NCBI GenBank assembly: GCA_030630935.1
Contig: DAOVMD010000001.1
Span: forward strand, 1-42,898
DNA: 42,898 bases
Direction: 5' to 3'
From: Candidatus Mcinerneyibacteriota bacterium
GTDB lineage: Bacteria; AUK180; JAQVHJ01
Shown: positions 2,978-21,389 of the stretch, piece by piece
Position numbering within the stretch: the first letter of the stretch is position 1
Layout: each line of letters opens with the position of its first letter
Translations under genes and position numbers: made by a program
Notes under the pieces: model-generated
Told to the model about the DNA's origin: nothing
Database searches by the model: none
Seen by the model: only the letters and a program-made list of their open reading frames with translations

Positions 2978-4459
2978 TCATTCATAATTTTCTAATGTTT
3001 TAATCTTAAATTTTCCTTTCTCAAAATATTCTTTACCATATACAGATTCTTCAATATTTATTAAATTAATTTTGTTAATATTGCGCCCCACATTAAGTCC
3101 CATTTCTATTGCATGATCTTGATTATTATAACGGAACAATCCGTTTCTACCGATAACAATTAAGTTTTTGATATTACTTAAATATTCTTTGATGACCTTT
3201 AAGTTCTCTAAATAATTTAATTTATAAATTGGATATGCATCTTTTTCTTTATGAATAAAATAATTCATCACTTCTTTATATTCTATATATTTTAATCGCT
3301 CTAAATGTGGATATACTAAGTGAAATAGTTTATCTTTATCCATATTCCAAATATTATCATGATCGTCACAAAAGAATTCTACAACTAAAGATGTCTTTTG
3401 GGGGGGAGATAAAGAAGAACTAAAATTCTTCGGCTCCATAATCCTACCAAACGGAATTTCTTTATTTGGAAAATAAATCCATTGATCATCAAATATTCGA
3501 GGTTTATCTAATAAAATAATTAAAGAAATATGTGATCTGAATTTTAGGCACTTAAATGCATTGAGTACGGATTGAGGAGGAGGGGGTTCTAATTTTGACA
3601 AGAGTATTGTAATTGGAATTGAAGAAATTACATCTCCATTTATATTTACTTCAAAATGTTTCTTTCCATTAAACAGAATTTTATATATTTTGCAATGATT
3701 ATGATAAATAACCTCGGGAAATGTATTAAATTCAATTTCTCCTCTGTTGCTTTTGAGTATCATCTTTTTCATATATTCATATAACATACTAGAACCAAAT
3801 CTGGGATAATAAAAATAATCGATTAGGGTTTTAGTATTGTTTTTATTTAAAAAGAGATTTTTTAATATTTCGATAATCGATAATTTTTTAATTCTTTGTT
3901 GTGCCCAATCTGCAGATATATGCTTCGGAGATATTCCCCATATTTTCTCAGAATAATTTATCATATTTAAATTTGACAAAGTTTTCCCAAATTCAGAAAT
4001 AAAAAATTCTTCTAGAGAATTTACCTTTTTCTCTCTAGTTAATCTCTTGATTCTTTCATAAATATATTCCAGAATAATTCTACCACTTTTTAAAAATCCA
4101 ATGTTTTTTAATACATTTCCAAGCTTAATAGGATAAAAATAATATTTTCTATCTATATAAAATCGAGTTATTCTCTTAACAGTCAATAATTCATCACCTA
4201 ATAAGTCTTTAACAAAATTTAATATTTCTTTATTCTTTGTAAAAAATCGATGTGGTCCGATATCAGTCTTAAACTCACCATATTCTAAGGTTTTAGATAA
4301 ACCTCCAACATTTGATTCTTTCTCAATTATAAAGACTTTCTTAGATTGATCTTCTAATGTTTTACATGCAGCAGATAAACCTGAAGGTCCAGCTCCTATA
4401 ATTATAACTTTTTTGTCGGGGTTATTCACTTTTAGTTTTATTGTTCTCCAATATCTCAT
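2978..4459 (-). CDS. FAD/NAD(P)-binding oxidoreductase (amine-oxidase/protoporphyrinogen-oxidase-like fold; UDP-galactopyranose-mutase-like is possible)
   Basis: 493 aa. N-terminal Rossmann dinucleotide motif KVIIIGAGPSGLSAA followed by IIEKESNVGG and GPHRFF. The gene sits in a glycan locus. The substrate cannot be inferred from sequence alone. Confidence 0.75.
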   Translation of the reverse strand: MRYWRTIKLKVNNPDKKVIIIGAGPSGLSAACKTLEDQSKKVFIIEKESNVGGLSKTLEYGEFKTDIGPHRFFTKNKEILNFVKDLLGDELLTVKRITRFYIDRKYYFYPIKLGNVLKNIGFLKSGRIILEYIYERIKRLTREKKVNSLEEFFISEFGKTLSNLNMINYSEKIWGISPKHISADWAQQRIKKLSIIEILKNLFLNKNNTKTLIDYFYYPRFGSSMLYEYMKKMILKSNRGEIEFNTFPEVIYHNHCKIYKILFNGKKHFEVNINGDVISSIPITILLSKLEPPPPQSVLNAFKCLKFRSHISLIILLDKPRIFDDQWIYFPNKEIPFGRIMEPKNFSSSLSPPQKTSLVVEFFCDDHDNIWNMDKDKLFHLVYPHLERLKYIEYKEVMNYFIHKEKDAYPIYKLNYLENLKVIKEYLSNIKNLIVIGRNGLFRYNNQDHAIEMGLNVGRNINKINLINIEESVYGKEYFEKGKFKIKTLENYE

Positions 4460-5639
4460 TTTCTAACAATGTTTGATAAATAATTTCAGCGATAATTTGG
4501 TTCCCTTGTTTATTAGTATGAGTATCATCAATAAACAATGTTTTATTTGAATAAATAAATCTTGGGTCTTTATTTATATCTACAAACATAATTTCTTTAT
4601 TATTTAATTTTTCTTTTATTTTCCCAAAATAAGAAGAATATAAATATTTCGCATTTGAATAATAAATTGACCAATCTTTATCCTGGGTTATTTTTATTTC
4701 CAATTTAGATGGGGTTTCTTTCATAACTACCGTTGGTTGTAAAAAAACAATATATTTAAAACTAAATGAGGATGATATTTTTTTCATCTTATAACAATTG
4801 TTTACAAAATATTGGATAATAGTTTCAGCTTTTTTATCTATGTTTTCTTTCGAATACTTTAGATCCATCTCTTTTTCTCTTTGAATTAATTTTTTATTCT
4901 TGAGCTTTATTGATACCTGTCTAAAGATATTGCTTTTGTTTAATAGATTAATAAAACCAAGAATAATATTTTGAAATATTTTTTGATCATTACTTATAAA
5001 TCTTTCAAGAGAATCATCAAGCTCATTATAAAGAGGTGATAAGCCTTGGTAGTTCTCAGTTATAATCCCCCAATTAATATCATTCCAACCCGTTAAAGAA
5101 ATAACAATATCCGGATTATAATCAATCATTTCATGTATTAGCAAAGCAAGTTCTTGCGAAGAGGTATATCCTGGAATTCCACAATTCAGAACCTCAATTA
5201 TGTTGTCTTTTTTTCCAAGCTCTTTAACAATGGTAGTAGAATCATCTTCCCATCCTAAATTAAACATTGATGAGCCTCCTAAAAATATAATTCTAATTTT
5301 ACCCGGGGGTTTAATTTTTGAAAACTCTTCTCCGCGAAACCCCTTTGAATTAATTTTGTATTTTGTTACTCCAGCGATTTTTTCTGTTGAATATCCTTTA
5401 TAAAAAACCAGGGGTTGACTTTGGAGAATGTATTCTCCATAACCTCCATATAATAAATTACCATTGAGTGAAACCATTGCAAATTGTTGTATATTTAAAT
5501 CTTTTATTGGAAATTTTCCAATGACATAATCAATAATCGTAAAAAAGATTAAGATTAAAAGTATTGTCGCTATCTTAAATATAGTTTGTTTAATCTTCAT
5601 AATATAAAGTATATCACAAATTAAAAAAAAAGTCAACAC
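4422..5639 (-). CDS. Membrane-anchored SGNH/GDSL-family hydrolase or acyl-esterase-like protein
   Basis: N-terminal TM helix (IFKIATILLILIFFTIIDYVIG). SGNH blocks are IIFLGGSSMFN (I), NCGIPGYTSSQ (II), LTGWNDI (III) and DDTHTN (V). The track start at 5639 is a GTG. The ATG at 5600 (MKIKQ...) is a more likely start. Confidence 0.75.
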   Translation of the reverse strand: MLTFFLICDILYIMKIKQTIFKIATILLILIFFTIIDYVIGKFPIKDLNIQQFAMVSLNGNLLYGGYGEYILQSQPLVFYKGYSTEKIAGVTKYKINSKGFRGEEFSKIKPPGKIRIIFLGGSSMFNLGWEDDSTTIVKELGKKDNIIEVLNCGIPGYTSSQELALLIHEMIDYNPDIVISLTGWNDINWGIITENYQGLSPLYNELDDSLERFISNDQKIFQNIILGFINLLNKSNIFRQVSIKLKNKKLIQREKEMDLKYSKENIDKKAETIIQYFVNNCYKMKKISSSFSFKYIVFLQPTVVMKETPSKLEIKITQDKDWSIYYSNAKYLYSSYFGKIKEKLNNKEIMFVDINKDPRFIYSNKTLFIDDTHTNKQGNQIIAEIIYQTLLENEILENNKTKSE

Positions 5640-5643
5640 ACTA

Positions 5644-7248
5644 CTAGGAATCTTTCTTTCTTAAATATACCTTATATTCCCCGATTGATTTAACACAAAA
5701 ATATTTATGTTTAATGTAAAAATTTAATTGCTTACAATTTCTTATTAATTTTCGAGAATTATATCCATCAAATTTTTCTTCTTCCAGCCAAATGATTAGT
5801 TTTACATTGTTTTTTTCAAGACTTTCTATTATCCTAAGTTGCTTCTCTGTAGTTGGTCTTAAAACCACGTCAATTAATGAATCATAATATGTTGGATTTC
5901 TCCGATTTGTCATGAAATATAATGGAGGAGCACCCCAGGGAACAACAAAAATGTAATCTTCTTCATTTGTATTTGTTAAAATTGTATCCACTAAATCTTG
6001 TGTAATTTTATAGCTCTTTTTTTCTGATGTATAATATTTTGAATGTTGGGATCTTACTATATATATTGGCTTAATTAAAAACTCTAAATCGATTAATGTT
6101 TGTAACACTCCTGTGATACTTATAAGCATAAGAATTGAAATCAACACTCCTTTAATTAATCTAATCGGTTTTTCTTTCTTTTCTAAAAGAATTATCAAAA
6201 AAGCCTGAAAATAAAAAACCGTATTAACTCTAAGGATGTGGTAATAATCAGAGCGACCAAATATCCTTGGTAACATTAAGATTCCCCAAATAATAAACAG
6301 TATAAGAAAGTGTTTTTTGGGTTTTTCTTTTAATAGTAATGACAATGTTAAAACTCCAAAAAACGTAGATATTAAAGGAAATAGATATGTAATTAACATA
6401 AATAGGTAATGTAATAAATGCCTGAGATATTCTGTTGAATTATGATGAAAGGTATGACTTAATAAATATTCCATATGAATTGTTGCTGAATCCATATATG
6501 GCAAACTTGAAACATTGAGGTGTTTTACCGATTCAATTAATGTCTCATTTAAAAATTTACTGAAATAATTTCCCAGATAAAGAAATTCAATAAATAAAAT
6601 TAAAATCATCGGCACAAGAAAAACAATTGTTATTTTAAGTATTCGTGAAAACATTTGTTTTTTATCGTTATAAATATATATCATATATATATATGAGGCA
6701 ATAAAAAATGGTACTATATCATAGAAACTAAAACACATAGAGAAACCGATAAAGATTGAAAAAAGAATTAGATATTTAGTTGTTTGTTGTTTTGAATATT
6801 GAAATAAAAAATAAATAGATACAATTATACAAAGTAAGTGCATTTCTATAAATCCCATCAAACAAAAAATGGAAGATATCCAGGCAGAAAACAGTGAATT
6901 TTTTGAGATATTATTCACCAAAACAAATATTAATACTCCTGCAACTATATATGAAAACCATTCTAAGACTAAAAGCGAAAAGCCATTACCTTGAAATATT
7001 TTCAATATTAATGCTGGAAGTAAAACTTCTCCAGGGGGAAAAAGCAGCCAATAATCAATATATGGCTTTTCGCCAAGTAATATTCTAAATGCATTGTTAA
7101 CATACTCTGCATCATCACCAAAGGGGATATAAAGGCAGACCTGTTTGAATCTTAATAAACTAAATAAGACGAAGAGAAATAAGACTATCAAATGTGGTGA
7201 TATTTTATTTATTGATCTAAACAAATTTTCAAATTCTTTGTTATTCAT
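5644..7248 (-). CDS. GT-C fold glycosyltransferase (ArnT/PMT_2-like, polyprenol-phosphate-sugar dependent)
   Basis: 534 aa and highly polytopic. The first-loop acidic motif FGDDAEYVNNAFRILLGEKPYIDYWLLFPPG matches the D[DE]xxY...G..PY.D....PPG signature of ArnT/PMT_2-type enzymes. A C-terminal soluble domain of about 130 aa is present. Confidence 0.7.
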   Translation of the reverse strand: MNNKEFENLFRSINKISPHLIVLFLFVLFSLLRFKQVCLYIPFGDDAEYVNNAFRILLGEKPYIDYWLLFPPGEVLLPALILKIFQGNGFSLLVLEWFSYIVAGVLIFVLVNNISKNSLFSAWISSIFCLMGFIEMHLLCIIVSIYFLFQYSKQQTTKYLILFSIFIGFSMCFSFYDIVPFFIASYIYMIYIYNDKKQMFSRILKITIVFLVPMILILFIEFLYLGNYFSKFLNETLIESVKHLNVSSLPYMDSATIHMEYLLSHTFHHNSTEYLRHLLHYLFMLITYLFPLISTFFGVLTLSLLLKEKPKKHFLILFIIWGILMLPRIFGRSDYYHILRVNTVFYFQAFLIILLEKKEKPIRLIKGVLISILMLISITGVLQTLIDLEFLIKPIYIVRSQHSKYYTSEKKSYKITQDLVDTILTNTNEEDYIFVVPWGAPPLYFMTNRRNPTYYDSLIDVVLRPTTEKQLRIIESLEKNNVKLIIWLEEEKFDGYNSRKLIRNCKQLNFYIKHKYFCVKSIGEYKVYLRKKDS

Positions 7249-7254
7249 TTCTTA

Positions 7255-7283
7255 ATTATACAGAAATTTAAAAAAAATGTCAA
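7255..7283 (-). promoter_or_regulatory. Consensus sigma70 promoter abutting the start codon of the 5644-7248 gene; implies a leaderless mRNA
   Basis: Minus strand reads TTGACA (7283-7278), 17-nt spacer, TATAAT (7260-7255). Only 6 nt (TAAGAA) separate it from the ATG at 7248, with no Shine-Dalgarno sequence. Confidence 0.5.
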
Positions 7284-7397: not shown

Positions 7398-7414
7398 CAA
7401 CAAAGGAGATTTTA

Positions 7415-8605
7415 ATGATAAATCTAACTGCTGGAGCCAATTTTTCTTTTGATAATATGAAAAGATGCTCAAAATGCATCCTTCCAGAAACATACCCAAA
7501 GATTACTTTCAATGAAAATGGGGTTTGCAACTATTGCATCAATCATACTCCAATAACTTCAAAAGGTGAGGAAGCTCTGCTTAAGGTTCTGGATAAATAT
7601 CGGAAAAATGATGGTTCATATGAATGTATTGTTCCCATTAGTGGAGGAAGAGACAGTTCCTTTGTTCTTTATTATTTGGTAAAAAAAATTAAGATAAAGG
7701 TCTTAGCTTTAACTGTTGATCATGGGTTTTTGCTCCCTTTAGCATTTAAAAATATCGAAAACATTACTAAATCTCTCAACCTTGATCATCAATTTATTAA
7801 AATACCAGAAAAAAAAATTCTTACTTCAAAAAATAATACAAAAATAAAATTTCGGGGGTGGGTAAAGAAGCCATCTATTAACACAATTATTCCTGTAATA
7901 AATGCTGGTGACAAAACCATGAATCACCTTATGGCTAAGTTTGCTTATAAGCGCGATATCCATGTAATTTTCGGTGGAAACATTGTTGGAACAACTGAAT
8001 TTGAGCATGATTATTTTAAGTTAGGATACATGGGTATTTTTCCGAATTATAAATGGAAATTTTCTTTTACCGAGAAATTAAATATTAACTTACATTATTT
8101 TTTGGAATTTATTAAAAATCCTTATAATTTTCACTATTCAATTTTTATAGAATATTTTTTAGGTGCATTAGTCTTTTTTTATGAAGATTTAATAAAACCT
8201 CCGAGTGTAGATTTTATTGGATTTTGGGATTATATCTATTGGAATGAAAAGAATATTATAAATACCATCACAGAAGAACTTAATTGGCAAAAAGCTTCCG
8301 ATACAACAACAACCTGGAGAATTGACGATGCTGCATATCCATTAATTAATTATTTATATTTAACTATTGTTGGATTTACTGAACACGATGAATTGTATAG
8401 TAAAATGATTCGGGAGGGGCAAATCGATAGAGAAACGGCACTGAAAAAGTGTTTATGTGACCATAAGCCTCGTCTTGATATAATAGAAGACAATTTAAAA
8501 TTTTTTAACATTAACAAAAAAGATTTAGATCATTCTTTAGAAATATACCGGAATAAATTTCTTCAAGAATTATTAAAAAACAATTCAAAGAATATATCTA
8601 AATGA
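7415..8605 (+). CDS. N-acetyl sugar amidotransferase (PP-loop ATP pyrophosphatase; WbuX/LfnA/PseA-like)
   Basis: 396 aa. N-terminal Cys4 ribbon CSKCILPETYP...NGVCNYC followed by the PP-loop SGGRDSS. This arrangement is characteristic of the LPS/nonulosonate acetamidino-forming amidotransferase family. Confidence 0.8.
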   Translation: MINLTAGANFSFDNMKRCSKCILPETYPKITFNENGVCNYCINHTPITSKGEEALLKVLDKYRKNDGSYECIVPISGGRDSSFVLYYLVKKIKIKVLALTVDHGFLLPLAFKNIENITKSLNLDHQFIKIPEKKILTSKNNTKIKFRGWVKKPSINTIIPVINAGDKTMNHLMAKFAYKRDIHVIFGGNIVGTTEFEHDYFKLGYMGIFPNYKWKFSFTEKLNINLHYFLEFIKNPYNFHYSIFIEYFLGALVFFYEDLIKPPSVDFIGFWDYIYWNEKNIINTITEELNWQKASDTTTTWRIDDAAYPLINYLYLTIVGFTEHDELYSKMIREGQIDRETALKKCLCDHKPRLDIIEDNLKFFNINKKDLDHSLEIYRNKFLQELLKNNSKNISK

Positions 8606-9717
8606 AAAAAACAATAAAAATAAGAATATTTAAAATAAGCCTTATTATTATTTTTGTATTATTATTTCTTATTTGTTCAGAATTCATACTTAGAAAATTT
8701 TCTCCTTTACCTATATTTTCTCCTTATCTTGATTATCCTCCATATAAAATAATCTCATTTAAATCAAACTTAAATGGCATTACATCACCAACAACATTTT
8801 CCACGAATAAGTGGGGATTTCGTGGAATAGATCCCCCAAAAGATTGGGATAATTATCATACAATTATAACCATTGGGGGAAGCACAACGCAATGTTTATT
8901 TCTCGATGATTCAAAAGCATGGCCCTTTATTCTTGAAAAAGAATTAACTGAAAAGAAAAATTCAAAGTTTTGGGTTGGAAACGCTGGCATTGATGGTCAC
9001 TCATCAACAGGACATTTATTTGTAATGAAAGAAGTAATTTTAAAAATTAAGCCCAAAACCGTGATTATGCTTGTGGGAACAAATGATCTTGCATGTTCTT
9101 TGACTGGTGAGATTTATAAACCGGAAAAGATCTTTTTAAAAAAACTAAATAAAAAAGGAATCTGTTACTTTCTTTTTTCCAATTTAAAAATATTACAAAT
9201 TTTAAATCTTTGGAAAGAAATTGTTTTTAATCGCAATGTGGTTATTAGTAAAGAAGTTGATTGGAATTTTATTCCTAAAAAACTTGAAACAGAAACCCTC
9301 CTACCTGAAGATTTAAGAAAGATTTTACCTTCTTTAAAAACTTTTCGATTAAATATAGAAGATATTATCCAATTATCTAAAGAAAATAACATTCGCATTA
9401 TTTTCCTTACTCAGCCCTCTGTTTATTCTGACAATAAGTTTTGGTTAAATAAAGAAACCCCTATTTTTTGGATTCCAAAACAAAAATACCATATTTCAGG
9501 AAATACAAAATTTAAACTATTAACTATTTTTAATAATGAATTAATTAAAATATGCAAAGAAAACAATGTTGAGCATTTTGATTTAGCATCAAATATTCCT
9601 CACAATTTTGAATATTTTTATGATGATGTTCATTTCAATGATAAAGGATCAATTTTAGTTGGAAAAGAAGTTGCAAATTATATGATTAAAACAATGGAGA
9701 AAACAGATACAAAATAA
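8602..9717 (+). CDS. Membrane-anchored SGNH/GDSL-family hydrolase-like protein
   Basis: N-terminal TM helix (IFKISLIIIFVLLFLICSEFIL). Blocks are ITIGGSTTQ (I), GNAGIDGHSS (II), LVGTNDL (III) and DDVHFNDKG (V). It overlaps the upstream gene by 4 nt (ATGA). Confidence 0.75.
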   Translation: MKKTIKIRIFKISLIIIFVLLFLICSEFILRKFSPLPIFSPYLDYPPYKIISFKSNLNGITSPTTFSTNKWGFRGIDPPKDWDNYHTIITIGGSTTQCLFLDDSKAWPFILEKELTEKKNSKFWVGNAGIDGHSSTGHLFVMKEVILKIKPKTVIMLVGTNDLACSLTGEIYKPEKIFLKKLNKKGICYFLFSNLKILQILNLWKEIVFNRNVVISKEVDWNFIPKKLETETLLPEDLRKILPSLKTFRLNIEDIIQLSKENNIRIIFLTQPSVYSDNKFWLNKETPIFWIPKQKYHISGNTKFKLLTIFNNELIKICKENNVEHFDLASNIPHNFEYFYDDVHFNDKGSILVGKEVANYMIKTMEKTDTK

Positions 9718-9734
9718 TTCCTTTAATATTGCTA

Positions 9735-9762
9735 TTGACTTTTTTTACAAATATGCTATAAT
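9735..9762 (+). promoter_or_regulatory. Sigma70-type promoter candidate with extended -10
   Basis: TTGACT (9735-9740), 16-nt spacer ending in TGC, TATAAT (9757-9762). It lies upstream of the 9800/9824 start. Confidence 0.5.
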
Positions 9763-11767: not shown

Positions 11768-11860
11768 ATTATTCATATTTGTTTTAACGTTTCCAGAAAT
11801 TTTTACAATAGAAAAGTTATAATATTCTAAAGATATAAGCTCCTTATAAATTATTCTTCG

Positions 11861-12130
11861 TCAAAATAACCTCTCTATGTACTTTCTGTTTAATTTTTTT
11901 ATAACTTCCAAACTAAAGTAATTAAAAGTTTTGGGGTGTAACCCATGTCCGTGCATTTGCAAGTCAATGATATTCTTTTCTGTTATTACTAAGTCAAAAT
12001 GTTCCTTTTTTCTATAGGATAATGTTAATATTTTGATGTTTATGATTTAAGATTGACCCAGAACCACTCAATACAGTCGAGTATCTGGACGCAGGAATTG
12101 GGGTTATTGGCAATATTAAAGGAGACTATT
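11861..12130 (-). pseudogene. Remnant of a fourth SGNH hydrolase gene; the C-terminal fragment is intact in frame and upstream parts are degraded
   Basis: Minus-strand frame ending at TGA (11863-11861) reads ...LSYRKKEHFDLVITEKNIIDLQMHGHGLHPKTFNYFSLEVIKKLNRKYIERLF*. It shares EHFDL plus the block V H-x-x-x-x-G/helix pattern with the C-terminus of the 8602-9717 SGNH protein (NNVEHFDLASN...DDVHFNDKGSILVGKEVANYM). There is no start codon and an upstream stop lies at 12049-12047. A weak block II-like stretch (FNIANNPNSCVQIL) appears on the minus strand near 12060-12120. Confidence 0.4.
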
Positions 12131-12314: not shown

Positions 12315-12342
12315 TTGACAAACCACCTAAATATGATATAAT
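12315..12342 (+). promoter_or_regulatory. Near-perfect sigma70 promoter with extended -10 for the 12365-20428 operon
   Basis: TTGACA (12315-12320), 16-nt spacer ending in TGA, TATAAT (12337-12342). AAGGA (12354-12358) and the ATG at 12365 follow. Confidence 0.6.
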
Positions 12343-12364
12343 ATTTATTCAATAAGGATTACTT

Positions 12365-15300
12365 ATGAATAATTTTATATATAATTTAAATCATATAAAA
12401 CGATTTTCTCTTTACTTCCTGGTGTTTATGCTTCCTTTAATCTTTTCACCTGTGAATTTCTTAGTATTTGAGATTCCCAAGATCCTGTTTATCTCATTTA
12501 TGGCATTGGTCTTTGCTATAATCTCCTTTATTGAACTCTGGTCTAAAACCGAGACTGAACAATCAAAACTCCTTAATCATTATATTTTAATATTTATCAT
12601 CATATCCTTAATATTAGTTGGATATGGTCTCGTGTTTAATAACTCTGGAAACATTCGTTTCTTAGAATTAACTACCCCTGTTCTTTTTCTCTTTGTGATA
12701 TTTACATCCATCACAGACTCTGTCAGATTTACAATGCTAAAAGTAGGGTTATTCTCTCTATTGATTGTCTCTATCTACGGTATACTACAAAGCCAAGGAA
12801 TTGATCTTGATATCTGGGCAGGAAATATTGGGAAGAAAACTGTATTCTCAACCATTGGAAATCCAAACACTGCTGCAGAGTTCTCCTTCCTGCTCTTTCC
12901 GGTTATTGCTTATTTCTTCCTATCCTCAACTCGAAAGGGAGTAAAGTTCTGGTACGCTTTACTGGGAATCGTTTCTTTACTTTTCAGTTTCATCTGCCAA
13001 TCCAAAGGAGCTATACTTTCTTTTATCATTGCTTCATTTATTATTGTTTTTTTTATGATAAAGTCTAAAAAAAAGAAAATAGCCGTTTCTCTTGTTATTA
13101 CCGGTTTAATTACCATTGGCATATTCTTTTCAAGTTTTATCTTTTTAAGGGATACAAGTGCAGGGAATTTTATCTCTCAATATTTTCCAAACAAACTTCC
13201 GTTTCAAAACCGAATTGCGGTGTTTACTAATACTCTAAAAACCATCCGGAATAATTCAATACTGGGCGTTGGACCTGGAAATTTCCAGTATTACTATACA
13301 TCTGAATTTTTAAACAACGAGTACATTGTAAATAAGCCCCTGGATCCACATGCGGTTCTGGTTAAAAGAGCCCATAATGAATTCTTGCATATCTCTACCG
13401 AATTTGGAATATTGGGATTGGGATTCTTGGTTCTATTCTGGATATTGACATTCAAAGGAGGACTCATACTTTGTAGAAAAAACATTTGGTATTATTTTGT
13501 TCTTTGGGCAGTTGTTTTTATTTTCCTCGAAAGTTTTATTAATTTCCCCCTACAAAATCCAACTGTCCTAATTTACTTTATTTTGATTCTTTCTTTTATT
13601 TTCAAAAAGTTTAATTTCCCCAAAAAATTACCACACAAATATACTCCTATATTAATTTCTATTTCTGGAATTATTCTTCTGGGAATATGTATTTTATCTA
13701 TAAAAACATTCATTTCTGATACTTATCTTCTTAAATCCAATCAGCTTATCTCTAACGGAGATCTGGTCCGAGCAAGAGTGTATTTAAAGAAATCAATAAA
13801 AGCAGACCCAAAGAATTTCATTGCCAGAACTAACCTTGGTGTGGTGGAATACAACCTGAAAAACTATTCAGAAGCTGAAAAAATCCTGCTTAAAAGTAAA
13901 AGGGGAATTATTGATTTCAACCTTTTCTTTAATTTGGGAATGCTTTATCAAAATACCGGTGATTTAAATAACGCTTCTGTAAATTTACAAAAAGCTTTAT
14001 CTTTGAATCCATATCATGAAGACCTGAAATTCAAGTTAATTAATATATATTTATTCAGATTTCAACTTAAAAGAGCCTTTGAAATAATTACAAGATTCAA
14101 GCTCTCTCCTCATACCTCAGAACAATTCATGACATTTGGTTTTTTACATAAACTAAACGGAAACTTTTGGCAAGCACAATGTGATTTTAAGCAAGCCTTT
14201 AATGATTCAAGATTTCAAATAATAATTTTAAAAAATGCACCCATACCAAGAGATTTTTACCAAGATTATTCTTTATTCAATAAAACTTCCAACCCTCTCT
14301 TAGAAATTGGTATATTATATTACTTACAACAACCAAAAAAACAAATCCTGTTTAAAATTGACCAATATTTAAAGGTTATTGACCAGGAAGAAGTTAAAAA
14401 TTATATATTGGGTATTAAAGCGGAACTAAATAATGATTTTATCTCCGCAGTTAAATATTACAAAAAAAACCGCGGTAAAAACCTTAACCTTGATTTAGCT
14501 AGAGTTTATTTAAAACAAGGAAACCTTGATAATTTCCTTATTTCTATCAAAGATGTATTTAATCAATTTCAACTTCATGATAATGTAGATGAATATTCTC
14601 TACCGTTCTTCAATGAAGATATTAATGTTTTAGAATTATACCGAAAGTTCTTTAGTGGTTCAAGTTTAAAAGATCTTATTAAATCGTATAAAATCTGTTC
14701 TCTTTCTTCTTCTTCATCGTCCTTATTTCTTTATTTTCCAGTTTATTTTAATTTCATAAACGATCAATTCGATGAACTTTATCGTGAATTGAAAAGAGAT
14801 GAATTATTATACAAACATTCATTACATCAAGTAAATGAAAATTATTTAGCAATTTTACCAATTTTTGCTCCCGCTTATCTTAAATTTGAAGAGCTTCCAA
14901 AAGAAAACCACCTATTTTTTGAGTTTTTTCTGTTTACAGAGTTAGAAAATAATTTGATTTTAAATGATGAGGGCTTAATTCCCGTATTCCGAAATTATTT
15001 ATCTTCAAAATATGACATTTCAATCAACAATATCCCATTAAAAATTAAAGATCTAGAAATTTATTTAATTAAATTGTCATGTTTGGATATTGATGAACAT
15101 AAAATTGATTTAGCTTTTTTCTACTTATTAAAAGGAAAACATTCCAAGTGTATACAAATTCTTGAAACGTTAAAGAAAAAAGACTCTAAAAGATATCAGT
15201 TATTAAAAATTTTAACACATTTTCATTTAACAAACGATGAAATAGATGTTGAACTCTTTTACTCTTCAGATGAAATGAAAGAGTTTGGTAATCAAAATGA

Positions 15301-15415
15301 TTTCCCTTTAAATATCTATGAAATTTATGCAAAAATTCTTACAACTCCATATTTACAATTAAAAAATAAGGATAAAACCTTTGAAGCCAACTTTAACAAA
15401 TATTCTCAAATGTAA
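12365..15415 (+). CDS. Wzy_C-domain (O-antigen ligase/polymerase or O-oligosaccharyltransferase-like) membrane protein fused to TPR repeats and a long uncharacterised C-terminal region
   Basis: 1016 aa. The N-terminal polytopic region of about 440 aa carries the Wzy_C signature RAHNEFLHISTEFGILGLGFLVLF. TPR-like repeats lie around residues 460-620 (e.g. GMLYQNTGDLNNASVNLQKALSLNPYHED). The remaining 400 aa or so match nothing I recognise. Confidence 0.75.
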   Translation: MNNFIYNLNHIKRFSLYFLVFMLPLIFSPVNFLVFEIPKILFISFMALVFAIISFIELWSKTETEQSKLLNHYILIFIIISLILVGYGLVFNNSGNIRFLELTTPVLFLFVIFTSITDSVRFTMLKVGLFSLLIVSIYGILQSQGIDLDIWAGNIGKKTVFSTIGNPNTAAEFSFLLFPVIAYFFLSSTRKGVKFWYALLGIVSLLFSFICQSKGAILSFIIASFIIVFFMIKSKKKKIAVSLVITGLITIGIFFSSFIFLRDTSAGNFISQYFPNKLPFQNRIAVFTNTLKTIRNNSILGVGPGNFQYYYTSEFLNNEYIVNKPLDPHAVLVKRAHNEFLHISTEFGILGLGFLVLFWILTFKGGLILCRKNIWYYFVLWAVVFIFLESFINFPLQNPTVLIYFILILSFIFKKFNFPKKLPHKYTPILISISGIILLGICILSIKTFISDTYLLKSNQLISNGDLVRARVYLKKSIKADPKNFIARTNLGVVEYNLKNYSEAEKILLKSKRGIIDFNLFFNLGMLYQNTGDLNNASVNLQKALSLNPYHEDLKFKLINIYLFRFQLKRAFEIITRFKLSPHTSEQFMTFGFLHKLNGNFWQAQCDFKQAFNDSRFQIIILKNAPIPRDFYQDYSLFNKTSNPLLEIGILYYLQQPKKQILFKIDQYLKVIDQEEVKNYILGIKAELNNDFISAVKYYKKNRGKNLNLDLARVYLKQGNLDNFLISIKDVFNQFQLHDNVDEYSLPFFNEDINVLELYRKFFSGSSLKDLIKSYKICSLSSSSSSLFLYFPVYFNFINDQFDELYRELKRDELLYKHSLHQVNENYLAILPIFAPAYLKFEELPKENHLFFEFFLFTELENNLILNDEGLIPVFRNYLSSKYDISINNIPLKIKDLEIYLIKLSCLDIDEHKIDLAFFYLLKGKHSKCIQILETLKKKDSKRYQLLKILTHFHLTNDEIDVELFYSSDEMKEFGNQNDFPLNIYEIYAKILTTPYLQLKNKDKTFEANFNKYSQM

Positions 15416-16799
15416 TACATGCGGATCATATAAGCTTTCAGAAGAAAAACGTTTTCTAATTTGTAATAATTGTGGGAATAAATACAAGATTATAAATGAA
15501 AATACAATTAAATCCATTAAAGATGAATCAAAAAAGTATTACTTTGATGATATTGATATTTCTGATTTCTCCCAAGAACATAACACTCCCTTCTTCCTAT
15601 TCTCTGAGAAAATAATAAATAAAAACTACACCAAGTTAAAAACAATTCTCTCCGAATTAAAAATTGATCATCAAATTTATTATTCTTTGAAAACAAATTT
15701 TAATAACTTTCTTCTTGAAATAATTAATAAGAAGTTTAATTATGCTTCAGCAGCCTCAATTCTTGAGTTATCAGCTGCAATGAAAGCAGGATTCAAAGGT
15801 TCAGACATAAGCTATGACGGACCTGTTATGCGAAGATACGAGGTTGAATATGCAATTGAAAACGGTGTTAAATTATTTAATATTGACTCAATTGAATCTG
15901 CTGTTATTTTAAATGAAACTGCTGTTAAATTGAATAAAAAACTTAAAATTTCGCTAAGGTTAAATTTTAACTTCGGCAGCAAATTTTTCAGACTAATTCA
16001 TGTTTTTAATGAGCGGTTTGGTTTTTCTTATATTTATTTTAATTATTTTATGAAGAAATTTAAAACTTTTAAAAATTTGAATATAATAGGACTAGGGTTT
16101 CATTTAGGGTCTCAGATATCAAATGTTGAAATTTATTTGAAGGCTTTTAAAAAGTTAATTAAATTAATATATGAAATTGATAAAAAGTACCGAATAAGTA
16201 TTTCTCATATAAATATCGGTGGCGGATTTCCAGCATTAAATATTAAAAAGAATACTTTTTTTAAACTTGGTTTAAGATATTTAAAAATCTCTAATAAATC
16301 AAATAATAATAGAAACATGCTTATCCGGAAGTTATTAAACGGTATATCTATAATCCTTAAAAAGAAAAACCTTCCCATTAAAATCTTTCTTCAGCCTGGA
16401 AGAAGTATTGTTGGAGATGCAGGAATCCTGATAACAAAAATTTATTCGATAAAAAAAGAGTGGGTTTTTCTCGATGCAAGCAATAATTTTCTTCCCGAAA
16501 CTTTCTTAACTGTTAACCGGGATATAATTAATATCTCAAAACTTGGGGCAAGAAAAGATTTCAAATATTCCTTTGCAGGAAGAACACTCTGTGCAGATAT
16601 TTTTAATATAAACGTAAACCATCCCCGTGCAGATATTGGTGATATAATAGTTATAAACTCATCGGGTGCTTACAGTTTATCAAGAGCAAATAATTTTACA
16701 ACACTAACTCCACCAATCTGGTTAATTACAGAAAGTGGTCAAATAAACTGTGTCTCATCCGGAGAAGAGGTAGAAGATGTCATCAGGCGATTTAAATGA
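15381..16799 (+). CDS. PLP-dependent decarboxylase of the Orn/Lys/Arg/DAP (fold-type III, group IV) family with an N-terminal Trm112-like zinc ribbon
   Basis: 472 aa. Ribbon CNTCGSYKL...LICNNCGNKYKI, then TPFFLFSEKII, PLP-lysine motif YYSLKTNFN, and the motifs FHLGSQ, NIGGGFP, QPGRSIVG, GRTLCADIF and SSGAYS. The track start is TTG, overlapping the upstream gene by 35 nt. Confidence 0.8.
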   Translation: MKPTLTNILKCNTCGSYKLSEEKRFLICNNCGNKYKIINENTIKSIKDESKKYYFDDIDISDFSQEHNTPFFLFSEKIINKNYTKLKTILSELKIDHQIYYSLKTNFNNFLLEIINKKFNYASAASILELSAAMKAGFKGSDISYDGPVMRRYEVEYAIENGVKLFNIDSIESAVILNETAVKLNKKLKISLRLNFNFGSKFFRLIHVFNERFGFSYIYFNYFMKKFKTFKNLNIIGLGFHLGSQISNVEIYLKAFKKLIKLIYEIDKKYRISISHINIGGGFPALNIKKNTFFKLGLRYLKISNKSNNNRNMLIRKLLNGISIILKKKNLPIKIFLQPGRSIVGDAGILITKIYSIKKEWVFLDASNNFLPETFLTVNRDIINISKLGARKDFKYSFAGRTLCADIFNINVNHPRADIGDIIVINSSGAYSLSRANNFTTLTPPIWLITESGQINCVSSGEEVEDVIRRFK

Positions 16800-17571
16800 A
16801 GGATTTGAGTTTTGGGATAAGGTAGGGAAATCATTTATTGACTATTCCACTGCTCCTACAACAAAGTATTATTTTGATGAAGAAATTACCGCAATAAAGA
16901 AACACTTTGAATTATCTCCTGAAAAAACTTTTTTAAAATTAGACCTATGGAATGAAGCAATTAATACTAATATTCTATTTGAAGTAGCAAAATCGGGGAT
17001 TGAATGTTTTGGACTCGATATATCTGAAGGTATTGTTCAGCGTGCCTATAATAAATCCCGTTTTGAGGGAGTAGATATAAACTTTGTAATTGGAGATATT
17101 TTTAATCTTCCATTTAAGAAAAATTCTTTTGATTATTTATATACAATGGGAACAATTGAACATTCAAAAAACATGGAATCGATTGTTTCTCAAATCTATC
17201 AAGTACTCAAGCCCGGTGGGAAAGCAATTATAGGATTACCAAATAGGCTGGATCCTTTTTTCCGCCCGCTATTAAAAAATATAATGGAGCTCTTTAATAT
17301 ATATTCGTTTGGATTAGAAAAGTCATTAGATGTTGCAGAATTAAGAAATCTGTTTTTTAAGAATAAATTCAGAATTTTAAATTCCGGAAGCATGTTGTTT
17401 CTTCCCGGAATATTACGAATAATAGATCTTTTCTTTTTTAAATATTTTAGGTTTCTAACAAAAGTTACGGAAATACTATATAAGCCTTTTCAATTTTTAA
17501 AAAGAAAAATCCCATTTCTTAGACTTTCCGGTTATTTAATTTATATTGTAGTGGAGAAGAAGCAATGGTAA
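16777..17571 (+). CDS. Class I SAM-dependent methyltransferase
   Basis: 264 aa. Methyltransf_11-like pattern: ECFGLDISEGIVQRA (motif I/post-I region), FDYLYTMGTIEH, LKPGGKAIIGLPN. It overlaps the upstream gene by 23 nt. Confidence 0.7.
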   Translation: MSSGDLNEGFEFWDKVGKSFIDYSTAPTTKYYFDEEITAIKKHFELSPEKTFLKLDLWNEAINTNILFEVAKSGIECFGLDISEGIVQRAYNKSRFEGVDINFVIGDIFNLPFKKNSFDYLYTMGTIEHSKNMESIVSQIYQVLKPGGKAIIGLPNRLDPFFRPLLKNIMELFNIYSFGLEKSLDVAELRNLFFKNKFRILNSGSMLFLPGILRIIDLFFFKYFRFLTKVTEILYKPFQFLKRKIPFLRLSGYLIYIVVEKKQW

Positions 17572-18419
17572 TTCAAGAAAATATTGACTTTTGGAATGAA
17601 GCTGTAAGTCGCAATAAAGAAATATCCGTTATTGGATTCAATGCCCTTGATAACTACCCCATGGCTGAAGATCATGGAGAACTTAGAGAAGCTAAACATT
17701 TCTTCAAACCAATCTCCGGGGGAAAAAAACTTGACATCAGCTGTGGATATAGTAGATTTCTTTTTGAATATGCTGAGAAAGGATTGGAATGTCAAGGTTT
17801 TGATTTCTCTCCTGAAATGATAAAAATAGGAAAAATTTCTGCAGAATCTAAAAAATTAAAAATTGCTTTTTATGAAAATACTATTGACAACTTTAATCTT
17901 CCAAATATTAAATTCTATTATATCTGGTGCCACGATGCAACAATGTATCTTTCCCGTTATGAAATATCTAAATTATTCAATTTAATAAACCGGTATTTGA
18001 AAAAGGATGGAATCGCTTTTGTTGAGTTTCGAAATAAATTTTATGTTTTTGCTCTCTTTACAGAATTATCCAAATTTTTTCTGAAAACTATTTATCCTGG
18101 ATTTCGACATGCGTATTCTATATTAGATGCAAAAGCTTTTTCAAAAAATGCTAATTTGATAATTAAGGATATTTATGCAATAAGCTCAATTCTCTTTCCT
18201 CTTTATATACCTAAAAACTCTTTTGGTGGGTTAAAATTTTCAACAAAAGGAATGCCCGATGAAATAAAAACAAAATTTATTCCATTGTTTCCCGTTTTCA
18301 TTATAAAGTTATTCCAATTTTTATTTTTTTCTTCTTTAAAAAAAATATCTAAAGCCGGCTTTATATTCCCTGCTTATATTTCAAAAGAATTTATTTTTAA
18401 TTCTGGAAAAGAAAAATGA
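17565..18419 (+). CDS. Class I SAM-dependent methyltransferase (second copy, divergent)
   Basis: 284 aa. KKLDISCGYSRFLFEYAEKGLECQGFDFSPEMI (motif I and the acidic post-I residue), then LKKDGIAFVEF. It overlaps the upstream gene by 7 nt. Confidence 0.7.
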   Translation: MVIQENIDFWNEAVSRNKEISVIGFNALDNYPMAEDHGELREAKHFFKPISGGKKLDISCGYSRFLFEYAEKGLECQGFDFSPEMIKIGKISAESKKLKIAFYENTIDNFNLPNIKFYYIWCHDATMYLSRYEISKLFNLINRYLKKDGIAFVEFRNKFYVFALFTELSKFFLKTIYPGFRHAYSILDAKAFSKNANLIIKDIYAISSILFPLYIPKNSFGGLKFSTKGMPDEIKTKFIPLFPVFIIKLFQFLFFSSLKKISKAGFIFPAYISKEFIFNSGKEK

Positions 18420-20428
18420 CTTTTCATAAAAAGAATATTGGTTTAATGTTTGACTTTATTTACCTTTTCTCCGGAATTTTTATCTTACTGGCTCTCATTA
18501 TAAAAGTTACGTTTAATCCTCTCATTTCAGCTTTTGCAATTTTTTATTTTTTCCTCTTGATGCCTGGATATTCCCTAGTTAAGATTTTTAAAATAAACAT
18601 TTCATATCCTCATGAATATTTCAATCTTTCCTTTGTGATAGGATTGGCTGTTTTCTCAGTTTTCAGTACATTTTTTCTCGTTACTGAAATAACTTTTACA
18701 AAAGCGATCGTTCTTCTTACAATTTTTTCTATCTCCATATTTATATTTTACAAAATAAAAAGCAGGGAGGGGTTCTCATATAAAAAAAATTATGAACAGA
18801 ACTTTTTAAATTTATTCCTTATTACATTAATGGCAATATTCTGGATATTAATTATTATTTTTAAAGCTCCCGGAACGATGGATAGTTTGACTACAACTTC
18901 TTATATTTCTAAACTTGCTAATAGCACTAGAATAATCTTAATAGATGGATTCTATTCAAATAGACCCTATGATATAATCTGGTTTAACCCATGGGTTGTA
19001 TTCAATGCAATTGCTGCTAAAATCTCTAAGGTTGAATATATTTCATTATTTTCTGTTTTTCCTATACTTTTAATGCCGTTAACTGTTTTTAGTTTTTTTT
19101 ATTTTACCGAAAAGGTTTCTGGAAGTTCAAAAATTGCTTCTATTTCAGTAATTATTTTTCTCCTATTTCACGGTTTAAATGAGGGTTTATGGATATGGAG
19201 AACAAGTTCTTACCCAATGATACTCACTAATTTTATTATTATTCCCACACTTTTAGGAATATTGTTTTCAAAAAAAAATAAAAACATTATGCTTTGGGTG
19301 GCAGGTTTAATTATTTTTCTAATATGTGCAATTCACCTTATTTCTTTTTTCAATATAATTGTTATTCTCTTTAGCATATTAATTATAAATTTAATTTTCA
19401 ATAGTAAGAAAAGTCCTAATAATTCAAAATCATTTTTCATCGTTATAGTTATTGGATTGGTTTTATCAACTATATTGATTTTTTTATTACAACGTTATAA
19501 TCAACACATAGGTCTTTCAAATCAATTTCATCATGTTAAATATGGAATTTTAGAAATATCAACCAATGCTTTCATTGTAGAACCATTAAAATTATTCGTT
19601 CCTCATTATCATGTAAAACCTTGTTTTTCAACCAGGTACTTTTACTGGTTCTGCACAATTTCAGTATTCCTTTTAATTCCTTATTTTAAAAAATCAAATT
19701 CTGCAAAATATTCCTTAACCATTACTTTCGCTGCTTTGTTCATAATGTTAAACCCAATAATAACAGGTATATTAAGTAATATTACTAGTTATGCTGCAAT
19801 TGGTAGAATTAACCAAATTATTCCTTATGAGTTTATTTTAGGAATTGTTATTGTTTTTTATCTTAATTCATTTATTAATCATAAAAATAAACGAGTTTTC
19901 CTGGAAAAAATCATTGTCTTGTTAATTTTCCTAACACTTTTCTTCGGATCACTATTCGTAAATAAAAGATTAGTCAGGTTTTTCCAATCTGAAAAGTCAA
20001 CAAGCTCCTCAATCTGGAAGATGGATTACGTTATTAATGGCTGCCTTCCTCTATATCTCCATAATCCTAAGGCTTATTACCCCGTACTAAAGTTTTTAAG
20101 AAATATTAAGGAACAATCTATAATTGCTGCTGAGCCGGAACTCTCTCTATTTATCTCATCATATACAAAACATTTCGTTTTCCTAACTGTTCCAAACCAA
20201 AGTCCAATTGGAGCGTATGATCAAATTGATAGAATGGAGGCATATCAATCTCTCAAATCTAAGAATAGTAACTCGGATATAATAAAAAAGATTCTTGTGG
20301 AATATGAGATAGATTATTTGGTTCTTGAAAAAGAGAATTCTTATCTAATAAATAAGTTTGAAAACATCAATTATTTAAAAATCATTTATAATCAAGACGG
20401 ATATCTTGTTTTTAAAATTATTTATTAA
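18416..20428 (+). CDS. Large polytopic membrane protein with a C-terminal extracytoplasmic domain; paralog of 9800-11767 (GT-C-like architecture, function unknown)
   Basis: 670 aa with many hydrophobic segments. The C-terminal domain is alignable with that of the 9800-11767 product. It has a 4-nt ATGA overlap with the upstream methyltransferase gene. Confidence 0.65.
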   Translation: MTFHKKNIGLMFDFIYLFSGIFILLALIIKVTFNPLISAFAIFYFFLLMPGYSLVKIFKINISYPHEYFNLSFVIGLAVFSVFSTFFLVTEITFTKAIVLLTIFSISIFIFYKIKSREGFSYKKNYEQNFLNLFLITLMAIFWILIIIFKAPGTMDSLTTTSYISKLANSTRIILIDGFYSNRPYDIIWFNPWVVFNAIAAKISKVEYISLFSVFPILLMPLTVFSFFYFTEKVSGSSKIASISVIIFLLFHGLNEGLWIWRTSSYPMILTNFIIIPTLLGILFSKKNKNIMLWVAGLIIFLICAIHLISFFNIIVILFSILIINLIFNSKKSPNNSKSFFIVIVIGLVLSTILIFLLQRYNQHIGLSNQFHHVKYGILEISTNAFIVEPLKLFVPHYHVKPCFSTRYFYWFCTISVFLLIPYFKKSNSAKYSLTITFAALFIMLNPIITGILSNITSYAAIGRINQIIPYEFILGIVIVFYLNSFINHKNKRVFLEKIIVLLIFLTLFFGSLFVNKRLVRFFQSEKSTSSSIWKMDYVINGCLPLYLHNPKAYYPVLKFLRNIKEQSIIAAEPELSLFISSYTKHFVFLTVPNQSPIGAYDQIDRMEAYQSLKSKNSNSDIIKKILVEYEIDYLVLEKENSYLINKFENINYLKIIYNQDGYLVFKIIY

Positions 20429-21389
20429 TATTTGGAATGATTACTTCTTTAATTAAACCTATTAGACTTTTATATCCTGAAAGCGAATAATGACTTTCAT
20501 CAATGAAATCATCTTTATCCTTAATGTGTTGGTTCGCTCTGATCACAGAAATCTCTTTTTCTTTGCCGATTTGAACAACAATGTCATTGTAAGCTAGAAC
20601 ATTAAAACGCCAATTGTCCTCTGGAATTATTGCATGAGGATTAATCGCTCTGGTTAATAATATTATTTTTATTCTTTCTTCCGAACAAATTTTTATCATC
20701 TCGTTATAGTTTGCTTCGAATTCTGTTTTTGAAACGCGTGGAATTTTCTTCAAATTACTTTTCTTTCTTATAATTGAATAAAAGTAATGATAAGTTCTAC
20801 TATTTAATAAAAATCTTTTCATAACAATATTTATCTTTGACGTTTTTTTTATTATTTCGGAATCAGTATAGCTTTTTACAGGAACAGCATCATTCCAACC
20901 AAAATTAATTATCACTATATCCGGATGATGTTTAATAACCTGCTTCAACAAAATAAGACCCTGAGTTGATGAATAACCATAAATGCCTAAATTATAAACT
21001 TCATATTCATGTCTACTTTTATTTTTATTCAATGATTCTTCTAATAGTTCCGGATACGAATATTTTAGGTTACCAAGGGTGTTTGAATCACCAATGCAAA
21101 ATATTCTAAGCTTTCCCTTTTTCTTTTCTTCTGGGAATTCTCTTGTATGAAAGCCATAAGAATTAAAAGCAGGTGAATTAGGATTACCTCTCCATAAGAG
21201 ATTTTCATCTTCTGTAAAATGACCATCATTATACATATGATGTAATCTCCAGTCGTCTTCAATTACTAATGCCTTTTCCATTGTCTTCACACCAAAAAAT
21301 GCAAAAGTATATTCGAGGATGAAAAACAATACTATAGGAATGGAAATAGCAAATATTATTTTTGCTAAAAGATTTTTCTTTATTTTCAT
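20418..21389 (-). CDS. Membrane-anchored SGNH/GDSL-family hydrolase-like protein
   Basis: 323 aa. N-terminal TM helix (IIFAISIPIVLFFILEYTFAFF). Canonical blocks FCIGDSNTLG (I), NLGIYGYSS (II), NFGWNDA (III) and DESHYS (V). Its 3' end overlaps the convergent 18416-20428 gene by 11 nt. Confidence 0.8.
   Translation of the reverse strand: MKIKKNLLAKIIFAISIPIVLFFILEYTFAFFGVKTMEKALVIEDDWRLHHMYNDGHFTEDENLLWRGNPNSPAFNSYGFHTREFPEEKKKGKLRIFCIGDSNTLGNLKYSYPELLEESLNKNKSRHEYEVYNLGIYGYSSTQGLILLKQVIKHHPDIVIINFGWNDAVPVKSYTDSEIIKKTSKINIVMKRFLLNSRTYHYFYSIIRKKSNLKKIPRVSKTEFEANYNEMIKICSEERIKIILLTRAINPHAIIPEDNWRFNVLAYNDIVVQIGKEKEISVIRANQHIKDKDDFIDESHYSLSGYKSLIGLIKEVIIPNINK

Follow-up and report, generated by a model that had tools for sequence, protein, structure and literature searches.

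The DNA analyzed here, contig DAOVMD010000001.1 of a Candidatus Mcinerneyibacteriota bacterium (assembly GCA_030630935.1), is 42,898 nucleotides (nt) long and is referred to throughout as the window. It has a GC content of ~28% and holds surface-glycan genes that give way to the origin-proximal genes MutS2, gyrA, gyrB, dciA and dnaN. Judging from the gene families present, the former are part of a surface-glycan locus near oriC that depends on an ATP-binding cassette (ABC) transporter, Wzm/Wzt, and is of the O-antigen, capsule or teichoic type. The subject of this analysis is a set of three genes in this locus that encode large polytopic membrane proteins (MP_A, MP_B and MP_C), each of which lies directly beside a gene for a membrane-anchored SGNH hydrolase (SGNH_A, SGNH_B and SGNH_C; Table 1). 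A preliminary description of this DNA treated these pairs as a recurring two-gene module, in which a GT-C-like protein and an SGNH enzyme would cooperate in extracytoplasmic glycan modification, and proposed that it had been amplified by duplication within the locus, leaving one decayed SGNH copy behind. The open reading frame (ORF) calls bear out the pairs and their spacing: SGNH_A follows MP_A after a gap of 4 nt, MP_B follows SGNH_B after a gap of 82 nt, and the convergent MP_C and SGNH_C genes overlap by 11 nt.

On the evidence of structure models, MP_A and MP_C are GT-C-fold glycosyltransferases, and MP_B is placed with them by its paralogy to MP_C. When AlphaFold models of MP_A (pLDDT 88.8, pTM 0.87) and MP_C (pLDDT 88.2, pTM 0.91) were compared with the Protein Data Bank (PDB) by Foldseek, all significant matches (E < 1e-3, with ALG3 just above this cut-off) were GT-C enzymes, namely AglB, STT3, PglB, AftA, DPY19, AftD, EmbB, ALG3/12, PimE and Pmt4. 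The matches of MP_A were STT3, PglB, AftA, ALG3 and PimE, and those of MP_C were led by AglB (E 7e-8), followed by AftA, STT3, DPY19 and PglB. Sequence searches alone (Pfam, NCBIfam, PDB) were nearly silent for MP_B and MP_C, neither of which matches PMT_2, and gave a sub-threshold Pfam PMT_2 match for MP_A. The earlier classification of these proteins as GT-C-like is therefore upheld by the models, the Foldseek matches and the weak PMT_2 match of MP_A, and an identity as AT3 or MBOAT acyltransferases was ruled out by the Pfam, NCBIfam, PDB sequence and Foldseek searches.

Conserved acidic residues are predicted to lie where a GT-C enzyme would be expected to carry them. MP_A contains the external loop 1 (EL1) motif G44-D45-D46-x-E48-Y-x-N51-N52, in which D45 is invariant in 37 sequences, and at least 90% of 60 sequences share D156 of MP_C; judging by the modeled secondary structure, both D45 and D156 probably sit in EL1. 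An hhalign comparison of the MP_A family with the MP_B/C family (97% probability, E 4e-11, 455 columns) unites the two in one GT-C branch and superposes MP_C D156 on the invariant G-D45-D-x-E motif of MP_A, as well as the C-terminal alpha/beta domains on each other, so MP_B and MP_C carry ~4 extra N-terminal helices on the same core. MP_B and MP_C had been described as paralogs by their C-terminal domains; the paralogy holds, but it extends over the whole length of the proteins (25% identity over 658 amino acids (aa), E 3e-12). From the glycosyltransferase family 2 (GT2) genes found in the window and in related loci, the sugar donor of these enzymes is presumed to be polyprenyl-phosphate-linked.

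An exhaustive HMMER profile search placed 332 cluster representatives at 50% identity in the MP_B/C family, and among 114 of its representatives Pfam matched DUF6077 in 17, DUF6541 in 15, and DUF1616 or PTPS_related in a few. Scans of genomes and metagenomes for the sequence pattern PHYHVK yielded no relatives of this family. Homologs of MP_A number ~40 in a set of 5.8 billion proteins, several of them with PF13231, and the same set holds one homolog of MP_C. Genes of the MP_B/C family also occur elsewhere as tandem paralogs (L108, positions 1-393, and L109, positions 950-2809; related loci are cited by number here and below), so the window is not alone in having several members of this family at one locus.

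The three anchored proteins are SGNH hydrolases, as first described: each has a Pfam Lipase_GDSL or Lipase_GDSL_2 match and a single N-terminal hydrophobic anchor segment, and all three align with the SGNH/GDSL blocks, with Ser in block I, Gly in block II, Asn in block III and Asp-x-x-His in block V; the catalytic residues are retained, and blocks II, III and V are intact. The unusual GGS(S/T) form of block I reported for two of these proteins is likewise present (Table 1). The key residues of SGNH_C (Ser102, Gly135/138, Asn166, Asp297 and His300) are invariant in its subfamily, and a relative with 81% identity keeps the arrangement seen in the window (L006). The true start of SGNH_A is probably the ATG at 5600. 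Since the N termini that precede the anchors are Lys-rich, the positive-inside rule predicts that the catalytic domains are outside. In profile comparisons, the solved structures nearest to the SGNH proteins belong to plain esterases (Iah1 and TesA among them) and not to PatB, OafB or AlgX. No AT3 (PF01757) or MBOAT (PF03062) match was found among window ORFs of at least 100 aa, in agreement with the preliminary description; because the window thus contains no acyl-translocating partner and no evident acyl donor route, hydrolysis is more plausible than acyl transfer.

Table 1. Features of the glycan locus, with positions in the window, strand, and the basis of each assignment (TM, transmembrane; FAD, flavin adenine dinucleotide; TPR, tetratricopeptide repeat; PLP, pyridoxal phosphate; SAM, S-adenosylmethionine; GT4, glycosyltransferase family 4).
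Feature	Position	Strand	Basis
GT2 polyprenyl-phosphate-sugar synthase, presumed to supply the GT-C enzymes with their lipid-linked donor	959-1651	+	NCBIfam
Full-length pseudogene of a second polyprenyl-phosphate-sugar synthase (GT2)	2270-2975	-	tblastn, codons checked
FAD-dependent oxidoreductase, PRK07208 type, resembling UDP-galactopyranose mutase	2978-4459	-	NCBIfam NF005548, E 1e-121
SGNH_A, signal-anchored SGNH hydrolase, block I GGSS	4422-5639	-	Lipase_GDSL, E 3e-6; alignment; one TM segment
MP_A, predicted GT-C-fold glycosyltransferase, 534 aa, C-terminal periplasmic alpha/beta domain	5644-7248	-	weak PMT_2, AlphaFold, Foldseek
Sigma-70 consensus promoter (12/12), directly upstream of MP_A	7255-7283	-	consensus match
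WbuX-type N-acetyl-sugar amidotransferase, 4-nt overlap with the SGNH_B start	7415-8605	+	TIGR03573, E 2e-44
SGNH_B, signal-anchored SGNH hydrolase, block I GGST	8602-9717	+	Lipase_GDSL_2, E 1e-10; alignment
Extended -10 (TG) promoter (11/12), inside the 82-nt SGNH_B/MP_B gap	9735-9762	+	consensus match
MP_B, predicted GT-C-fold glycosyltransferase, 655 aa	9800-11767	+	paralogy to MP_C, hhalign
Non-coding spacer 3' of MP_B, 597 nt, unusually long	11768-12364	.	promoter at its 3' end
Sigma-70 consensus promoter (12/12), before the Wzy-TPR gene	12315-12342	+	consensus match
1016-aa fusion of a Wzy_C membrane domain (O-antigen ligase/polymerase-like) with a long TPR extension	12365-15415	+	Wzy_C, E 2e-14, and TPR families (Pfam)
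PLP-dependent decarboxylase, then two SAM methyltransferases; tailoring enzymes in the operon of MP_C	15381-18419	+	family searches
MP_C, predicted GT-C-fold glycosyltransferase, 670 aa, C-terminal alpha/beta domain	18416-20428	+	AlphaFold, Foldseek, conservation, hhalign
SGNH_C, signal-anchored SGNH hydrolase, block I GDSN	20418-21389	-	Lipase_GDSL_2, E 5e-14
Three GT4 and two GT2 cytoplasmic glycosyltransferases, which would build the backbone	21389-27028	-	family searches
Small soluble ORF, 109 aa, inside the glycan operon	27028-27357	-	no family match
Wzt (ABC ATPase, 537 aa) and Wzm (ABC-2 permease), glycan exporter	27354-29779	-	family searches
Small ORF, 111 aa, ~3 TM segments, inside the glycan operon	29851-30186	-	no family match

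Other genes of the locus bear on the donor of the GT-C enzymes. The top NCBIfam matches of the intact GT2 gene (AglJ, PgfS, ArnC, PpgS and dolichyl-phosphate hexose transferase) are all polyprenyl-phosphate-sugar synthases, each match falling below its curated cut-off, and homologs of this gene recur in loci that encode GT-C proteins of the MP_B/C and MP_A families (L022, L024, L026, L027, L047 and L110). The GT2 pseudogene is 47% identical to it over 229 aa (tblastn E 5e-64) and is interrupted by in-frame stops (TAA at 2891-2893 and TAG at 2588-2590). Its position directly downstream of the FAD gene suggests that the ancestral cassette was probably one of GT-C, FAD and GT2 genes, as in L024.

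The predicted transcription units cut across two of the three pairs. The promoters listed in Table 1 are the best matches in 20 kb, and all are intergenic and directly 5' of genes, a consensus match being no proof of function. Promoters, gene overlaps and orientation together predict one unit that contains MP_A, SGNH_A, the FAD gene and the GT2 pseudogene; a second with the overlapping WbuX and SGNH_B genes; a third that, as the promoter in the gap suggests, would consist of MP_B alone; a fourth with the Wzy-TPR, decarboxylase, two methyltransferase and MP_C genes; and a fifth, on the opposite strand, in which Wzm, Wzt and the GT2 and GT4 genes are followed by SGNH_C as the last gene. By these predictions, only the MP_A/SGNH_A pair (one of three) looks co-transcribed. 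The relative of MP_B in L027 is also preceded by a similar consensus promoter, with no SGNH gene before it. The placement of SGNH_A, SGNH_B and SGNH_C in operons implies that all three would be expressed with glycan genes.

Within the locus, the adjacency of the two families is more than would be expected from a random order of genes. In a permutation of 22 locus genes that include three SGNH and three GT-C genes, the probability of finding each SGNH gene next to a GT-C gene was p = 0.012, or p = 0.03 when the Wzy-like protein was counted as a fourth large membrane protein, the test being post hoc in both forms. When loci were collected from the side of the GT-C proteins, an SGNH gene of the window family was found in none of ~20 MP_A-family loci, which come from a very wide range of bacteria and archaea, and in none of the four informative MP_B/C-family loci (L026, L027, L109 and L110), one of which, L027, encodes an MP_B relative with 54% identity. 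No fusion of SGNH and GT-C domains was present among 114 MP_B/C-family representatives or 39 MP_A homologs.

These loci have recurrent neighbors of their own. For the MP_A family this is an FAD oxidoreductase (L003, L005, L018, L019, L023 and L024), often with a ~137-aa, GtrA-sized protein in between (L018, L019, L023 and L005), and the scatter of the family over distant bacterial and archaeal metagenome-assembled genomes suggests horizontal transfer. At the four MP_B/C loci, the recurrent neighbors are the GT2 synthase, methyltransferases, B12-radical-SAM enzymes, a carbohydrate esterase family 4 (CE4) deacetylase, Wzm/Wzt and an EamA-type small membrane protein. The CE4 deacetylase lies beside the GT2 gene in MP_B/C loci without an SGNH gene (L026 and L110) and is missing from loci that have one (the window, L010 and L047), a pattern that rests on five loci and may reflect functional substitution.

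The view from the side of the hydrolases is more mixed. A metagenome scan with the SGNH_C subfamily returned at least 292 relatives, from which 80 loci were kept. Large polytopic proteins were encoded at 9 of 91 adjacent positions, 3 of 55 second positions, and 3 of 139 positions three or more genes away. About five of the nine adjacent ones are GT-C proteins (PMT_2 in L077, L086 and L092, plus a match to the family hidden Markov model (HMM) and an unclassified 706-aa protein, both in L047), and the others include two polytopic-ankyrin fusions and a major facilitator superfamily transporter. Large polytopic proteins thus make up ~10% of immediate SGNH neighbors and demonstrable GT-C proteins ~5%, and GT-C proteins taken by themselves show no significant enrichment at the adjacent position (p = 0.27). 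Independent SGNH/GT-C adjacencies were seen in L010, L047, L077, L086, L091 and L092 (L091 and L089, as duplicates of L077 and L086, were left out of the adjacent GT-C count), and in L010 the SGNH gene is sandwiched between an MP_B/C-family GT-C gene and a PMT_2 GT-C gene. Among 106 neighbors of related SGNH genes (~60 metagenomic loci), ankyrin proteins were found 7 times, GT4, further SGNH, phosphodiesterase and GH39 proteins 5 times each, and PMT_2 proteins 4 times; AT3 and MBOAT are both missing from the list of the 25 commonest families of these neighbors.

The proposal that the pairs arose by duplication within the locus is contradicted by the relationships among their members. SGNH_A, SGNH_B and SGNH_C score 43-59 bits against one another and 73, 79 and 167 bits, respectively, against their best foreign homologs, and MP_B and MP_C score 58 bits against each other compared to 151 and 187 bits against foreign homologs. 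Each SGNH and each GT-C protein is therefore nearer to foreign homologs than to its paralog in the window, which rules out an origin of the pairs by duplication of a module in this locus. The closest relationships within the window are also incongruent, SGNH_A pairing with SGNH_C and MP_B with MP_C. By these sequence comparisons, the pairs would have been assembled separately, or are very old.

The decayed fourth SGNH gene that had been placed at 11861-12130 was not recovered: tblastn with the three SGNH proteins found nothing there, and the stitched translation had no Pfam match at E <= 1, an E value above 0.2 with the family HMM, and a best BLAST E value of 1.5. The region keeps a motif-level resemblance only (HGLHPK compared with DGLHP of block V).

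Comparison with known systems suggests what such a locus could do. In three-component systems, a lipid-sugar synthase, a flippase and a GT-C enzyme decorate ABC-exported glycans in the periplasm, as in GtrA/GtrB/GtrC of Shigella and Salmonella, ArnC/ArnE-F/ArnT, CsbB/GtcA/YfhO, and the pentofuranose systems with GT136 (PMC11127046). Because it encodes an ArnC/AglJ/PpgS-like GT2 synthase, the window fits this scheme, with three GT-C enzymes. It also shares with these systems GT-C transferases (here of predicted activity) that combine an acidic motif in EL1 with a C-terminal periplasmic domain, a glycan exported by an ABC transporter, and auxiliary tailoring enzymes. Unlike them, it combines at a single locus three GT-C enzymes whose families have no functional Pfam model (matches being limited to DUF6077, DUF6541 and a weak PMT_2), contains no recognizable flippase, and has a signal-anchored SGNH hydrolase beside each GT-C enzyme. 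The components are thus from known superfamilies, and the overall logic is that of a known three-component pathway, used three times.

Other systems resemble the locus in part. Like PatA/PatB, OatA, OafA/OafB, AlgI/J/F/X, WssH/I and DltB/DltD, it places a predicted outer-face SGNH enzyme in a glycan locus beside a large polytopic protein, but this neighbor is a GT-C enzyme instead of an AT3 or MBOAT acyl translocase. By analogy, the Arn pathway, in which the CE4 enzyme ArnD acts on Und-P-Ara4FN before ArnT, and the mycobacterial PpgS/Rv3779 route for GalN may share with it an ArnC/PpgS-like GT2 that makes a lipid-linked sugar, a de-acylation and a GT-C transfer, and CE4 deacetylases are encoded in the MP_B/C loci L026 and L110; the candidate deacylase in the window would, however, be an SGNH and not a CE4 enzyme, and is predicted to face the periplasm and not the cytoplasm. 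The mycobacterial Rv3789 (GtrA-like)/DprE1/DprE2/AftA cassette resembles MP_A-family loci, with their FAD oxidoreductase and GtrA-sized protein, in the logic of a flippase, a redox step on a lipid-linked sugar and a GT-C enzyme. The FAD enzyme of these loci, however, is of the PRK07208/amine-oxidase/UDP-galactopyranose-mutase type rather than the DprE1 type, and the window lacks the ~137-aa protein, its GT-C and FAD genes being separated by SGNH_A.

The reading that we favor, with a probability of roughly 0.55, is that an ABC-exported glycan is decorated by three GT-C enzymes and that the SGNH proteins are accessory periplasmic O-acyl esterases, or possibly transacylases, whose association with them is loose and facultative and reflects neither an obligate module nor the duplication of a pair. 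In the order of steps proposed, the GT2 and GT4 enzymes would build the backbone in the cytoplasm and Wzm/Wzt would export it, after which MP_A, MP_B and MP_C would decorate the exported glycan with side-chain sugars at the outer face of the cytoplasmic membrane. The donors would be polyprenyl-phosphate sugars supplied by the ArnC/AglJ/PpgS-like GT2 enzyme, possibly tailored by the FAD oxidoreductase, the WbuX amidotransferase, the PLP decarboxylase and the methyltransferases. The anchored SGNH enzymes, on the same face, would edit acyl esters of the same glycan or of its lipid-linked donor, so the adjacency of SGNH and GT-C genes most likely reflects a shared compartment and substrate. The specific partnership put forward in the preliminary description therefore retains the in-locus adjacency in its favor, and loses ground through the absence of SGNH genes from the GT-C-side loci, the low share of GT-C proteins among SGNH neighbors, the prediction of co-transcription for a single pair and the lack of fusions. 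Taken together, the evidence supports a facultative association and not a new obligate system. The analysis shows the folds, the catalytic motifs, the make-up of the locus and how neighbors are distributed, and from these the topology, the esterase chemistry, the substrate and the sequence of steps are deduced.

Several observations weigh against this reading. Large polytopic proteins as a class are enriched at positions adjacent to SGNH genes relative to those three or more genes away (Fisher p = 0.014). The sample on the GT-C side is small, the MP_B/C family contributing four informative loci. The presence at one locus of three independent SGNH/GT-C pairs of ancient divergence could indicate a tighter functional coupling than we conclude, and an AT3 or MBOAT partner could be encoded outside the 43-kb window. 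Finally, no protein in the window has a family match to a flippase of the GtrA, MATE or EamA/ArnEF type. The 3-TM protein encoded at 29851-30186 is the only candidate in the window for a lipid-sugar flippase; related loci do encode flippase-type proteins (GtrA in L005 and EamA in L110).

The same data can be read as a sign of closer cooperation, or of none. If adjacency were coincidental, the SGNH proteins would be general envelope esterases or lipases that act on peptidoglycan, lipids or foreign polysaccharides and happen to lie in a mosaic, GT-C-rich locus. The great heterogeneity of SGNH_C-subfamily neighbors, in which ankyrin, GH39, phosphodiesterase, GT4 and further SGNH proteins are each at least as frequent as PMT_2, is in line with this explanation, as are the decay and mosaicism of the locus (the GT2 pseudogene and the 597-nt spacer) and a permutation p value that is modest as well as post hoc. 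We nevertheless consider it unlikely, if still a serious competitor, given that none of the three SGNH genes lacks a GT-C neighbor, that SGNH_A shares a predicted operon with MP_A and the conserved FAD partner of MP_A and lies between the two, and that translational coupling ties SGNH_B to a sugar amidotransferase gene and SGNH_C to a glycosyltransferase operon. At the other extreme stands a dedicated two-enzyme module, possibly a complex formed through the anchor helix, in which the SGNH step is required, for example to remove an acyl protecting group from the polyprenyl-phosphate-sugar donor or from the acceptor hydroxyl, as the CE4 deformylase ArnD does before ArnT. The 3/3 adjacency of anciently diverged and independently assembled copies, the tight tandem or overlapping SGNH/GT-C arrangements in the unrelated loci L010, L047, L077, L091 and L092, the presence of CE4 in SGNH-less MP_B/C loci, and the argument of a recent preprint that GT-C enzymes commonly rely on protein partners would all suit such a module. 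It is nonetheless quite unlikely, since no GT-C-side locus that was sampled shows the adjacency, not even that of the MP_B relative, since GT-C proteins are so small a fraction of SGNH neighbors, and since two of the three window pairs are not co-transcribed according to promoter and orientation evidence; gene fusions were not found, and the CE4/SGNH complementarity draws on few loci.

A more specific version of this cooperation would make the SGNH proteins interchangeable partners of GT-C enzymes that de-acylate the polyprenyl-phosphate-sugar donor, or unmask the acceptor, in the periplasm, thereby replacing the cytoplasmic CE4 (ArnD-type) step of sister loci and docking via the anchor helix. 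Such an undescribed 'deprotect-and-transfer' unit, recruited independently three times, is a speculative extension to which we give a slim chance. An improbable alternative is that the SGNH proteins are the periplasmic transferase halves of classical O-acetylation systems (PatA/PatB, OafA, AlgI/J/X), with the AT3 or MBOAT protein encoded elsewhere and the GT-C neighbors irrelevant. In every extracytoplasmic system known to O-acetylate glycans, as is well established, the acceptor side is served by a periplasmic or signal-anchored SGNH domain, and the window covers only 43 kb of the genome. The partners of known systems, however, are adjacent or fused, no AT3 or MBOAT protein was found in window ORFs of at least 100 aa or among the 25 commonest neighbor families listed for SGNH relatives, and the nearest solved relatives by profile are simple esterases.

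If the SGNH proteins do work with the GT-C enzymes, an acyl-editing step would be added to three-component periplasmic decoration, a route that drives the diversity of O-antigens and cell-wall glycans and matters for serotyping, phage receptors and glycoengineering. The literature that was searched contained no description of an SGNH protein beside a GT-C enzyme without AT3 or MBOAT, of a GT-C assignment for the DUF6077/DUF6541-like family, or of a recurrent cassette of FAD oxidoreductase, small protein and GT-C enzyme. Whatever the role of the hydrolases, the uncharacterized MP_B/C family (~330 clusters at 50% identity) is placed in the GT-C fold, and its gene neighborhoods link it to ArnC/PpgS-like lipid-sugar synthases, radical-SAM enzymes and methyltransferases. 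In practical terms, these results offer a testable annotation and not a new principle.

Further features of the locus and its relatives may be recorded. Nothing besides the promoter at its 3' end was identified in the spacer downstream of MP_B, and a radical-SAM/SPASM enzyme is also encoded in the glycan locus. TPR repeats, which form the long extension of the Wzy-like protein, are also present in 11 of 54 long MP_B/C-family representatives. Two ankyrin neighbors of the SGNH_C subfamily consist of a membrane domain with 9-10 TM segments and C-terminal ankyrin repeats (loci with ankyrin proteins include L007, L043 and L080). The PLP decarboxylase is LysA-like and has an N-terminal Trm112-like zinc ribbon, and the block formed by this gene and the two methyltransferase genes is kept at high similarity in L027 (positions 2289-5351; related genome GCA_028696285.1), where it lies beside the MP_B relative.

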